64,000 nt of DNA, taken from assembly GCA_018263575.1 (NCBI GenBank), contig JAANWX010000107.1:127-64126 (forward strand), in the 5' to 3' direction. This stretch comes from Chloroflexota bacterium. Its GTDB lineage: Bacteria > Chloroflexota > Anaerolineae > Anaerolineales > UBA11858. Below the pieces are notes generated by a model. It was given only the letters and a program-made list of their open reading frames with translations, did not search any database and was not told the DNA's origin. This document shows, piece by piece, positions 1 to 61,800 of the stretch. Position numbers and translations under genes: made by a program. The stretch's first letter is position 1, and the number at the start of each line of letters is the position of its first letter.

Positions 1-144
1 CAGTTTCCCGGTTTCCCAGTTTCCCAGTTCCCCAGTTCCCCAGTTTCCCGGTTTCCTGGTTTCCCAGTTTCCCAGTTCCCCAGTTCCCCAGTTTCCCAGT
101 TCCCCAGTTCCCCAGTTTCCCAGTTCCCCAGTTTCCCAGTTTCC
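1..144. repeat. Tandem array of 18 octamers CAGTTYCC (variants CGGTTTCC, TGGTTTCC); may continue beyond the left window edge
   Basis: Read directly: 18 contiguous 8-nt units. The array ends 5 nt before the stop codon (150-152) of the minus-strand BNR gene. A period of 8 is incompatible with coding. Confidence 0.95.
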
Positions 145-1559: not shown

Positions 1560-1596
1560 AAAAAAGCCCTCTCATCCCGTAGAGGACGAAAAGGGC
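1560..1596 (-). terminator. Intrinsic terminator of the T-box leader
   Basis: Minus-strand RNA GCCCUUUUCGUCC-UCUAC-GGGAUGAGAGGGC (11 of 13 positions pair, including G-U) followed by UUUUUU. It lies immediately 3' of the T-box sequence. Confidence 0.75.
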
Positions 1597-1882
1597 CAAG
1601 AGCTGCCTTCCGCGGTACCACCTCGTTTTGCCACGTAAAAGGGTGCTGACTTGTTTTTACGGGCACTCTCATCCCGGCTTGGACAGAAACTTCCGCAACG
1701 GGATTTCGCTATAACGGGCTTACCCGTGTCGGTCTACTCTTCACTGACTGGGCTTGAATTTCTTCGACATTTTCTCTGGGCGACTTTCGGTGGGGCTTGC
1801 TGGGGGCGACTTTCAGCCAGTGGTCATCCCTTCTCTAGCAGCACGCGGAGCACCTACTCCTCCCAGATCGGTTTATTCGATT
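1597..1882 (-). promoter_or_regulatory. T-box leader RNA (tRNA-sensing riboswitch), probable Val (GUC) specifier
   Basis: Minus-strand motifs in canonical order: AGUA S-turn (1855-1858), AGAGAA bulge (1831-1836), distal loop CACUGGCUGAAA, specifier loop CACC-GAAAGUCG-CCCAG (1776-1792), F-box CCGUUA (1712-1717), stem III CGUAAAA/UUUUACG, and T-box sequence GGUGGUACCGCG (1611-1622). Confidence 0.8.
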
Positions 1883-1888
1883 GTCTAC

Positions 1889-1917
1889 ATTATACACACA
1901 ATTTTGATTGCGGTCAA
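1889..1917 (-). promoter_or_regulatory. Sigma70-type promoter for the T-box leader
   Basis: The minus strand reads TTGACC (1917-1912), a 17-nt spacer, then TATAAT (1894-1889). Both hexamers are at or near consensus. Confidence 0.65.
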
Positions 1918-6685: not shown

Positions 6686-6773
6686 CAAAGGCTGAACGAT
6701 TACCAAGTGAATGTCACCAAAGGGGGAATCATTAAAACTAAATCTCTTTTATTCTCTTCCAAAGGAGGAAGCA

Positions 6774-8468
6774 ATGAAGAACAAACCTTGGCTTGATAGA
6801 TATGATGAAGGTGTACCCCAAAGCATAGATTATCCGGAAGTTCCCCTTTTCCATTTTCTAGAGGAGTCGGCCCGCAAGTACCCAGACCAGCCATGTACCA
6901 TCTTTAAAGGAGCCAAAATCTCTTATTCCGAGATGGATGCCCTTACAAACCGCTTGGCGGCGGGGTTAGCGAGCCTGGGAATCGAGAAAGGGGATCGGGT
7001 AGGATTATTTATGCCCAACACGCCCCAGTTCTTGCTGGCCTATTTCGCGGTGCTCAAGATTGGGGGCGTTGTTGTCGCCACCAATCCCATGTACACCGCG
7101 CGTGAAATTGAGCACCAGGCTAACGATTCGGGAATGGAAATTATGCTTGTCATGAGCAATTTCTATAACCAGGTCAAAGAGGTGCAGCATAAAACGAAAA
7201 TTCGTCAATTGGTGGTCACCAATCTCAAAGAGACCTTGCCTCCCGTAATGAGGCTTTTGTTCACCTTGGCCAAAGAGAAAAAGGGTGGTTTCCGAGTCGA
7301 TTTAAAGGACAACGATATTTGGATGCAAGATTTGATTTCCAAACATGCGCCTGAAGATCGCCCGGACGTGCAAGTTGGCCCTGACGATACGGCCATTTTC
7401 CAATATAGCGGCGGCACCACGGGAACGCCTAAGGCCGCCATTGCCCTGCACCGCAACTTGGTCGCCAATACCCTCCAAATTCTGCGCTGGATGCCAAACG
7501 CCGTCATGGGAGAAGAAGTCGTCCTCATGGCCATCCCCCTATATCACGTTTATGGCATGGTGGCGGGAATGAACTTTGGGCTAGCGGCCGGGGCCTCCAT
7601 TGTCATGGTGCCAGACGCCCGCGACATCAAAGACAGTGTTGCCACCTTAGAAAAGAATAAGGCCACCATTTTCCCTGCCGTCCCCGCCCTCTATAACGCC
7701 ATTAACCACTACCCCGACGTTGAAGCTGGCAAATACGATTTATCTTCCATCAAGGCCTGTATTTCCGGATCCGCCCCTCTCCTGCGCGAGACGAAAGAAA
7801 CCTTCGAGGCCCTGACAGGTGGTGTGGTTTTCGAAGGCTTCGGACTCTCAGAAGCCCCCACCGCGACCCACTGTAACCCGCTCCTGGGCGAAAACAAAAC
7901 CGGCTCAATTGGCATGCCCCTTTCGGATGTCGACGCGTGCATAGTTGACTTGGATGATGAAGAAACGGTGCTCCCCATCGGTGAAATTGGCGAATTGGTC
8001 GTCAAAGGCCCCCAGGTCTTCAAAGGCTATCACAATATGCCAACCGAGACCCGTAACGCCCTGCGAGAAGGATGGCTTTATACCGGAGACATTGCCCGCA
8101 TGGATGAAGATGGCTACTTCTACATTGTTGACCGCAAAAAAGAAGTCATCAAGCCCGGCGGTTTCCAGGTTTGGCCACGAGAAGTGGAAGAGGTAATCCA
8201 GGATCATCCCGCCGTATTCGAAGTTGGTGTCGCTGGCGTGTCTGATCCCTCCCGGGGTGGAGAGACCGTAAAGACCTGGGTAGTGCTCGAAGCCGGAAAG
8301 GAGATAGAGAAAGAAGAGCTGCGCACGTGGTGCAAAGAGCGTATGGCCAAGTACAAAGTGCCCACCCAGGTTGAATTCCGAGATGAGCTGCCCAAAACCC
8401 ACGTTGGCAAGCTCCTCCGCCGCGAGTTGGTCCGCCAGCATAAGGAAGAGGCTGGAGGTGGAGAGTAG
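6774..8468 (+). CDS. Long-chain fatty acid--CoA ligase (AMP-binding family)
   Basis: Motifs YSGGTTGTPKAA, GFGLSE, YTGDIARMDEDGYFYIVDRKKEVIK and a C-terminal PKTHVGK. The start is set at the ATG preceded by AGGAGGAA. The ORF track begins at 6711. Confidence 0.85.
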   Translation: MKNKPWLDRYDEGVPQSIDYPEVPLFHFLEESARKYPDQPCTIFKGAKISYSEMDALTNRLAAGLASLGIEKGDRVGLFMPNTPQFLLAYFAVLKIGGVVVATNPMYTAREIEHQANDSGMEIMLVMSNFYNQVKEVQHKTKIRQLVVTNLKETLPPVMRLLFTLAKEKKGGFRVDLKDNDIWMQDLISKHAPEDRPDVQVGPDDTAIFQYSGGTTGTPKAAIALHRNLVANTLQILRWMPNAVMGEEVVLMAIPLYHVYGMVAGMNFGLAAGASIVMVPDARDIKDSVATLEKNKATIFPAVPALYNAINHYPDVEAGKYDLSSIKACISGSAPLLRETKETFEALTGGVVFEGFGLSEAPTATHCNPLLGENKTGSIGMPLSDVDACIVDLDDEETVLPIGEIGELVVKGPQVFKGYHNMPTETRNALREGWLYTGDIARMDEDGYFYIVDRKKEVIKPGGFQVWPREVEEVIQDHPAVFEVGVAGVSDPSRGGETVKTWVVLEAGKEIEKEELRTWCKERMAKYKVPTQVEFRDELPKTHVGKLLRRELVRQHKEEAGGGE

Positions 8469-12344: not shown

Positions 12345-12489
12345 GGGGAATGGGGCAGGGAGCGGGAATCAGGAAATCAGGGAGCAGGGAAGCTGGAAAC
12401 AGGAAACCAGGGAGCAGGGAAGCAGGGGAGCTGGAATCGGGAAACCAGGGAGCAGGGAAGCTGGAAACAGGAAACCAGGGAGCAGGGAA
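12345..12489. repeat. Tandem 7-8-nt array GGRAANCW/GGGAGCA, the inverted version of the 1-144 unit family
   Basis: About 19 units. Blocks such as AGGGAGCAGGGAAGCTGGAAACAGGAAACC recur, which indicates higher-order periodicity. The reverse complement reads CTGGTTTCC/CTGTTTCC. Confidence 0.9.
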
Positions 12490-18462: not shown

Positions 18463-18692
18463 GCGAGTGTGCGAGTGTGCGAGTGGCAAGTGATGGCAAG
18501 GGGCAGGGGACGGTAGAGGCAAGGTAAACAAACGGCATAAACAAAGTAAACGGTCCAGGCAGCGAAATATGGGCCGACCGGGTAGCGAGCCAACCGAGTT
18601 GGCGGCATGGGAAGGTAAACATAGTAGACAGGGTAGGCAAGGGGCAAGGGGAAAGTGGCAAGAGGCAAGTAGCAAGTGGCAGGAGGCAAATG
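18463..18692. repeat. Degenerate tandem array of 7-8-nt units GCGAGTG / GCAAGTG / GGCAAGG
   Basis: Starts 10 nt after the esterase stop. It is well ordered at both ends and degenerate in the middle. It ends in AAATGTCAT, like the array at 12345-12489. Confidence 0.85.
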
Positions 18693-22494: not shown

Positions 22495-22640
22495 GACGAG
22501 TGGGTGGGCGAGTTGCGAGTTGCGAGTGGCGGGTGGCGAGTGGGCGAGATGCAAGTTGTGAGTTGCGAGTGTGCGAGATGCGAGTTGCAAGTGGCAGGTG
22601 GCAAGGGGGAAGGGGCGAGGGGGCAAGGGACAGGGGCTGG
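22495..22640. repeat. Tandem heptamer array GCGAGTT/GCGAGTG/GCAAGTG/GGCAAGG
   Basis: About 20 units, in the same family and orientation as 18463-18692. It lies between the SARP regulator stop (22671) and the PBP start (22464). Confidence 0.9.
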
Positions 22641-61568: not shown

Positions 61569-61800
61569 TGGTCAGTGGGCCAGTGGACCAGTTGACCAGT
61601 AGATCAGTAGACCAGTTTGACCAGTGGGCCAGTGGACCAGTTGACCAGTAGACCAGTAGACCAGTTTGACCAGTTTGACCAGTGAGACCAGTGAGACCAG
61701 TAGACCAGTTGACCAGTTTGACCAGTGGGCCAGTGGACCAGTTGACCAGTTAGACCAGTAGACCAGTTGACCAGTCTGACCAGTCCGACCAGTCAGACCA
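61569..61800. repeat. Tandem array of about 28 units GACCAGTN(N) (8-9 nt)
   Basis: Read directly. The block GACCAGTTTGACCAGTGGGCCAGTGGACCAGTTGACCAGTA recurs three times. The last unit contains the stop codon of the GGDEF gene (61793-61795). Confidence 0.95.

Follow-up and report, generated by a model that had tools for sequence, protein, structure and literature searches.

T-boxes upstream of valS, the valine-tRNA ligase gene, belong to the most frequent kind, and Chloroflexi are already among the groups with recorded T-boxes (PMC2494555, PMC3766115, bioRxiv 10.1101/2020.06.17.157016). As described for the valS operons of Firmicutes and other Gram-positives (PMC2494555), these leaders combine a Stem I that carries an S-turn specifier loop, an AG bulge and a distal loop with an F-box, a Stem III, a UGGN bulge in the 14-nt T-box sequence and competing antiterminator and terminator structures, and they present a Val codon upstream of valS. 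The same paper places 8% of T-boxes ahead of genes of unknown function or without an apparent link to amino-acid metabolism, and in its Table 2 Val T-boxes precede genes labelled 'Val-tRNA ligase related hypothetical', namely spr0489 of S. pneumoniae and str0474 of S. thermophilus (PMC2494555). Our literature search found no T-box description for the Anaerolineales.

The locus considered here lies in an Anaerolineales genome (contig JAANWX010000107.1 of assembly GCA_018263575.1), within a stretch of 64,000 nucleotides that was analysed as a whole and is called the window below. On its minus strand, a leader with the above structural features of valS-operon T-boxes and a Val codon precedes a gene for a predicted BNR-propeller lipoprotein. 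Compared with its homologs in related genomes (denoted by L numbers), this leader is very probably a canonical transcription-attenuation T-box for tRNA-Val(GAC), heading an operon of two genes or longer in which the BNR lipoprotein gene is followed by valS. Like the streptococcal spr0489 and str0474 (known here from the table in PMC2494555), the BNR gene is an unknown-function gene preceded by a Val T-box at a valS locus; unlike them, it encodes a secreted propeller lipoprotein of 440–455 aa and is the first gene of the operon clade-wide. The Val T-box operon as such is largely ordinary, and what is distinctive is its Anaerolineales host, the sub-threshold scores of its leaders and the conserved promoter-proximal propeller lipoprotein.

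The T-box leader and its specifier codon

The Rfam T-box model RF00230 matched the window at 1579–1873 (minus strand) over its full length (model positions 1–219) with 56.2 bits (E = 1.6e-11 in a local search, E = 1.4e-9 for the whole window), and this was the sole Rfam match with E ≤ 1e-3 in the window. The bit score falls short of the curated gathering score (93); a default-threshold Rfam scan of the window returned 0 matches, and the T-box emerged only under E-value thresholds. The Anaerolineales leaders as a group differ in this respect from the valS-operon T-boxes described earlier, since the homologous leaders scored 40–81 bits against RF00230, below the gathering threshold (L001, L003, L007, L009, L013, L019, L020, L024 and L044). 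The low scores are due to insertions in Stem II and in the interval between F-box and Stem III, together with unmatched model positions 9–14 at the base of Stem I. These positions (consensus gaUGAa), as well as positions 99–101, were unmatched by cmscan in both the window and L001. In the region of the GA (K-turn) motif, GA dinucleotides stand on either side of the Stem I basal helix and no K-turn is assignable.

The leader is preceded by a sigma-70-type promoter (1889–1917, minus strand) composed of TTGACC (1917–1912), a 17-nt spacer and TATAAT (1894–1889), with 11 of 12 consensus matches. L001 and L003 have an equivalent promoter, likewise 11 of 12, at the corresponding position, and the leader alignment A2 shows conservation of GTATAAT. 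Stem I (1771–1872) contains AGUA at 1858–1855, the AGAGA bulge at 1836–1832, the distal loop GCUGAAAG at 1817–1810 and the basal helix CUGGG/CCCAG. Its specifier loop, GAAAGUCG (1781–1788), holds the codon GUC at 1784–1782 followed by the purine G1781 and then by helix. The F-box CCGUUA (1712–1717), aligned to the CCGUUA of the model, is situated inside the Stem II / IIA-B region (1770–1690), and the Stem III hairpin follows at 1629–1666. The T-box sequence AAAACGAGGUGGUACCGCG (1629–1611) includes GGUGGUACCGCG (1622–1611) with UGGU at 1620–1617. In the antiterminator (1582–1624), GAGG (1624–1621) pairs with CCUC (1585–1582) and GCGGAAGG with CCUUUUCGU, leaving a UGGUACC bulge at 1620–1614 whose variable position is U1617. 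The intrinsic terminator (1556–1594) consists of a 12-bp hairpin (1594–1567) and the following CUUUUUUGUUU, with U6 at 1565–1560; its 5′ arm and the antiterminator's 3′ arm overlap, sharing the strand CCUUUUCGUCCUC.

As folding energy of the whole leader was no better than that of shuffled sequences (z = −0.11 for the single-sequence MFE), its structure was judged by comparison of relatives. Homologous leaders were taken from upstream of the orthologous BNR gene in related Anaerolineales genomes; 20 of them with a readable Stem I make up the alignment A3, and Stem III, terminator and antiterminator were tested on 21. In A3 the 20 pairs of Stem I were formed in 96% of cells, and in 16 of these pairs both partners had changed; 500 shuffles never reached the observed values, and slid partners were paired in only 38–47%. 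The AGAGA bulge and the distal loop were both at least 90% conserved in the 20 leaders. All four aligned pairs of Stem III showed compensatory changes (e.g. A-U to G-C in 9 of 21 sequences). The terminator was 95% paired, with compensatory changes at two pairs, and the two antiterminator helices were 100% and 98% paired, again with two compensatory pairs. CCCGUUA, which contains the F-box, was nearly invariant in A2, as were GAAGAAA...AGUAGA and CACGGG..CCCGUUA, and the UGGUACC bulge was invariant in every leader compared. The antiterminator (1624–1582) is the MFE structure, at −12.7 kcal/mol, when the RNA is cut off ahead of the terminator's 3′ arm, and is less stable than the terminator hairpin at −19.4 kcal/mol; sharing one strand, the two are mutually exclusive. 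Judged from these comparisons, which go well past what chance could produce, the window leader is a genuine, complete transcriptional T-box of standard layout. A sequence-only reading of the window had listed the same elements, from promoter to terminator, and had called for a covariance-model match and for alternative 3′ folds. All of the elements were found on the minus strand and the competing folds bear this reading out; the RF00230 match is full-length, with a score below the gathering score.

The same reading chose GUC (Val) over AGU (Ser) as the specifier codon, a choice that the relatives uphold. GUC falls on the consensus codon positions of the model in the cmscan alignment, and none of the 20 leaders in A3 departs from it. 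On its 5′ side stands A, U or G (no base in L009), and on its 3′ side G, A or, in one leader only, C, followed by the covarying basal helix. Since GUC never varies while the preceding base does, the codon is Val and not AGU/Ser. It is hardly credible, then, that the leader is a decaying, non-switching relic, or that it reads AGU. Such a reading can point to the Rfam score below the gathering threshold and to the presence of AGU one base upstream in the window sequence, but it is already contradicted. The AGU register exists only in some leaders, its A being replaced by U or G or deleted in most relatives with GUC unchanged, and a relic is ruled out by compensatory changes in every helix and by two alternative 3′ structures that are 95–100% paired in 21 leaders. 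Bacterial tRNA-Val carries the discriminator A73 and tRNA-Ser the discriminator G73. The U at the variable position of the bulge fits the former and not the latter, as far as these generally known tRNA identities are concerned. No tRNA gene was found in the window, and no tRNA-Val gene in the 85 loci searched.

Gene order downstream of the leader

Behind the terminator, the first gene of the window is the BNR gene, whose start codon lies 43 nt past the terminator (SD GGAGG at 1529–1525; ORF 1517–150 on the minus strand, with ATG at 1517, 455 aa). The window ends 150 nt past the stop codon of this gene, inside a tandem repeat of 8 nt (GGRAACUG on the mRNA strand; 18 copies, 1–144, minus strand) that starts the spacer after the BNR stop and reaches the window edge. 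As an operon-specific signal this repeat is ruled out, because several further intergenic sites in the window carry similar repeats. The contig (64,651 bases) is only 651 bases longer than the window. No ValS-like sequence was found anywhere in the window, and an exact 48-mer scan of metagenome contigs gave 0 matches for a contig crossing the window edge. A valS operon can thus be recognised here only from the gene neighbourhoods of relatives, and not from the window by itself.

Searching species-representative genomes with a BNR family alignment yielded 80 loci, to which the tally adds other look-ups. A Val T-box stands immediately upstream of a BNR ortholog in 24 loci, the window included. 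The sequence ends too early in four of these (the window, L010, L028 and L167); in each of the 20 loci with downstream sequence, BNR has a co-oriented valine-tRNA ligase gene downstream of it, so that in the relatives the downstream operon matches the amino acid of the specifier, valS itself being outside the window in our locus. Orthologous BNR genes with valS downstream were recorded in L001, L003–L009, L011–L016, L018–L021, L024, L044, L069, L166 and L168. Among relatives with long contigs, the two closest are L001 (64% protein identity) and L003 (67%); in both, a 901-aa valS begins ∼90 nt beyond BNR in the same orientation. The order of genes upstream in L003 is the same as in the window (Lactamase_B, PlsY, DUF5656, UPF0102, MiaA, AMP-binding), and the upstream genes of L001 are unlike those of the window (MutL, Mrr, pyrophosphatase, EF-G). 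Three still closer relatives identified by tblastn (65–67% identity) give the same picture: the spacer between BNR and valS is 35 nt in L166 and 224 nt in L168, and in L167 a small NucS-like insertion after BNR is followed by the contig end.

The basic architecture, leader-BNR-valS, has several variants. A PhzF-family gene stands after BNR in eight loci (leader-BNR-PhzF-valS; the contig of L010 ends before valS), among which L009 has further genes (leader-BNR-PhzF-HicB/Arc-PIN-valS), and L015 has the order leader-BNR-ORF-PIN-valS. In L007 and L013 the leader and BNR are followed by another ValS type (NF009687; 827 and 842 aa); the two proteins share 68% identity with one another and ∼30% with the standard type. 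BNR-valS spacers in the relatives span 35–490 nt, several with other repeats of ∼8 nt, and extra genes are often present. Two exceptions were noted. In L022 the BNR ortholog sits after an alpha-amylase gene, with neither a T-box nor valS, and in L017, where the contig start truncates the upstream side, it is followed by RecJ; the 827-aa ORF of L017 was considered as a third alternative ValS and rejected, BLAST and Pfam both assigning it to RecJ.

Each locus has one T-box, upstream of BNR, according to a core-motif scan, and cmscan found none between BNR and valS in L001–L003 and L005. Neither a sense-strand terminator nor a strong promoter was detected between the two genes in L001 and L003, where the one strong promoter is that ahead of the leader. 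In the window, a weak promoter-like site (9 of 12) at 175–147 overlaps the BNR stop codon, due to which some T-box-independent transcription of valS may remain.

The sequence-only reading had described a leader controlling a lipoprotein gene instead of that of an aminoacyl-tRNA synthetase, and had asked whether valS is found near the orthologous leader in relatives. It is, behind leader and BNR in all 20 informative loci, so that 'instead of' fails. With the leader intact and covarying and the locus not rearranged, the suggestion of a relic of a rearranged valS or ilv locus is not sustained either. In the source genome valS would lie just beyond the window edge, and the impression of a T-box driving an unrelated envelope protein would be an artefact of a normal valS operon being cut off at the contig edge.

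A working model can be put together from these elements. Transcription would start at the TTGACC/TATAAT promoter; Stem I would offer GUC to the tRNA anticodon, with the platform of AGAGA and distal loop docking the tRNA elbow. The NCCA end of an uncharged tRNA-Val (A73 opposite U1617) would then pair with the UGGU bulge and stabilise the antiterminator (1624–1582), letting RNA polymerase continue into BNR and on into valS. With charged tRNA, the more stable terminator (1594–1567 and the U-run) would be expected to form, and transcription to stop 43 nt ahead of the BNR start codon. Co-transcription of BNR and valS, binding of the tRNA and valine-dependent read-through are what we infer from the conserved leader and gene order.

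The BNR lipoprotein and the history of the locus

The product of the first gene agrees with its earlier description as an Asp-box/BNR beta-propeller lipoprotein with a GGAGG SD, 43 nt downstream of the terminator. The predicted protein has matches to Pfam BNR (PF02012) and Sortilin-Vps10 (PF15902) and a signal peptide with Cys18, a residue shared by ≥ 90% of 43 homologs, and a disordered linker of ∼70 residues precedes the BNR/Asp-box beta-propeller. Its AlphaFold model is a beta-propeller with a mean pLDDT of 85 (propeller > 90). The best fold match in the PDB is Ycf48 (5ojr, E 6.5e-11, TM 0.64 as normalised to Ycf48), followed by GH74 enzymes and sortilin. An exact look-up of the window protein returned no record; in source annotations its homologs are named 'photosystem II stability/assembly factor-like'. 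The fold match and the Asp-box repeats are indeed shared with Ycf48/HCF136. On the other hand, the BNR product is only 16% identical to it and carries a long disordered linker as well as a lipoprotein signal. With the NCBIfam Ycf48 equivalog model NF010237 it reached 45 bits (cut-off 326), the match being confined to residues 364–448. The product is thus ruled out as Ycf48 and is a paralogous BNR propeller, despite the real fold resemblance. To our knowledge, the Anaerolineales are non-phototrophs, which makes a photosystem II role unlikely. Pfam, NCBIfam and fold searches found no sequence or fold link between the BNR product and amino-acid metabolism.

The T-box-linked BNR orthologs form one clade (bootstrap 96/100), inside which L022 and L017 also fall and protein identity drops to about 40%. 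More distant BNR paralogs (≤ 45% identity) occupy ∼58 loci, which have neither a T-box core nor valS. On the side of the synthetase, 14 BNR-linked ValS sequences are monophyletic (bootstrap 90/100), with L086–L088 as their sister group. A valS-centred metagenome scan with universal ValS motifs gave only about six loci near enough for an informative comparison. In these reasonably close relatives lacking BNR (L086–L091, 52–70% ValS identity), a GUC T-box is present upstream of valS in six of six, and in five it is placed 100–240 nt directly ahead of valS; in L086 a DinB-like ORF of 166 aa stands between the two. The simplest reading of these sequences is that a single insertion of BNR into the spacer of an ancestral leader-valS unit would have taken place in the common ancestor of one Anaerolineales clade. 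The insertion looks old, BNR appearing to have been kept as the first gene, with accessory genes entering later between BNR and valS. BNR is retained as the first gene across a clade of at least 20 species-level lineages, and the T-box-BNR unit is retained in the two lineages with a replaced ValS type (L007 and L013).

What the switch controls

The position of BNR as the first ORF, 43 nt past the terminator and with a good SD, could suggest that the T-box controls this gene only, valS being transcribed from a promoter of its own, in which case an envelope protein and not an aminoacyl-tRNA synthetase would be tied to the charging of Val-tRNA. The weak promoter-like site at 175–147 and the spacers of 35–490 nt, often with repeats or extra genes, are compatible with such an arrangement. 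We consider it very unlikely, as all 20 informative loci have valS downstream and the specifier names the amino acid of ValS, the genes in L001 and L003 are separated by neither a sense-strand terminator nor a strong promoter, the spacer of L166 is merely 35 nt, and sister lineages carry the same leader directly on valS. The link between an envelope protein and Val-tRNA charging that the sequence-only reading had offered is therefore retained in a weaker form, BNR being co-regulated as the promoter-proximal gene of a valS operon, and dropped as an exclusive one.

Within such a BNR-valS operon, the lipoprotein gene could be a passenger or a selected member of the valine regulon. As a selected member, it might encode, e.g., an extracytoplasmic peptide- or ligand-binding propeller that aids uptake of substrates containing valine and is co-induced with ValRS by uncharged tRNA-Val. 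Its constant place directly behind the terminator, with the later insertions (PhzF, toxin-antitoxin, NucS-like) all between BNR and valS, speaks for this possibility, as do the age of the orthologous clade, with BNR identity down to about 40%, the T-box-BNR unit kept in two lineages with a replaced ValS type, and the nearest folds (Ycf48 and the sortilin Vps10 domain), which were solved as peptide complexes. If true, selection on BNR would explain how a promoter-proximal T-box-BNR module persisted through later insertions and two replacements of the ValS type. Selected membership is nevertheless improbable in our view: inherited synteny after one insertion can explain the conserved order, the spacer has also taken up unrelated genes (toxin-antitoxin, DinB-like, NucS-like) and thus looks permissive for insertions, L022 keeps a BNR ortholog without any T-box, the ∼58 paralog loci are without one as well, and neither sequence nor fold ties the product to amino-acid metabolism. 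For the long-term retention of BNR in the valS operon, inherited synteny is more likely than selected co-regulation.

Overall, T-boxes of the Anaerolineales score far below the Rfam gathering threshold and are missed by routine annotation; the 21 aligned leaders could seed a better T-box model. The leader-valS unit has repeatedly gained genes (BNR, PhzF, toxin-antitoxin, DinB-like and NucS-like) and represents a natural series for the tolerance of T-box operons to such additions. As the promoter-proximal member of a putative valine-responsive operon, the BNR lipoprotein of unknown function gains a testable expression cue, valine starvation.

T-box leaders and their Rfam scores

The T-box leaders of this clade (window 1579-1873, minus strand, and those of the related loci L001, L003, L007, L009, L013, L019, L020, L024 and L044) score 40-81 bits against the Rfam T-box model RF00230. 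As the gathering score of this model is 93, every T-box leader of the clade falls short of it, and they would therefore be overlooked by default Rfam-based annotation. The T-box core pattern GGYGGNACCRCG has a second match in the window at 7410 (plus strand), within a 585-aa ORF (6711-8468) that would be an AMP-binding gene, as suggested by synteny with the close relative L003. This match was rejected as a second T-box, being a chance occurrence without covariance-model support.

Repeats around the leader and in intergenic regions

Intergenic tandem repeats with a period of 7-9 nt occur in the window at 1-144, 12355-12489, 18636-18689, 22504-22595 and 61573-61800 (e.g. CAGTTTCC x18 and CCAGTTGA x25). 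Relatives carry repeats of other sequence in the equivalent spacer between the BNR lipoprotein gene and valS, as well as within leader insertions (L007 3841-4331 and 2125-2335; L069 1469-1576; L003 11324-11417; L009 2245-2335). Short tandem repeats thus look like a habit across the genomes of these Anaerolineae, and a tandem repeat probably caused the contig break. A long, almost perfect hairpin lies directly upstream of the T-box promoter of L013 (3362-3538); numerous unrelated models of miRNA precursors hit it on either strand, with scores reaching 85 bits, and the hairpin probably represents an inverted repeat.

Gene content downstream of the T-box

Two exceptions were found within the T-box-linked BNR clade. 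The BNR gene of L022 (3562-4953) follows an alpha-amylase gene, with neither a T-box nor valS at the locus, and that of L017 (9-1115) is followed by recJ, its upstream side being lost at the contig start.

In two lineages the T-box-BNR unit precedes an alternative valine-tRNA ligase (NF009687; L007 4332-6815, 827 aa; L013 5435-7963, 842 aa) with ~30% identity to the standard type. No standard valS is visible downstream of PhzF in L013. The BNR protein of L013 shares 80% identity with its counterparts in L010 and L012; of these two loci, L012 carries the standard ValS in its operon, and the L010 contig stops ahead of valS. Because of this close BNR match to a standard-type operon, the synthetase seems to have been swapped in place behind the T-box-BNR unit.

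Accessory genes have been gained repeatedly by the T-box-controlled valS transcription unit, including toxin-antitoxin pairs (HicB/Arc plus PIN in L009 3812-5779; an ORF plus PIN in L015 5420-6225), a NucS_C-like ORF (L167 3629-4380), a DinB_2-like ORF in the BNR-less relative L086 (798-1298), and PhzF-family isomerase genes (L010, L011, L012, L014, L016, L018, L021 and L024).
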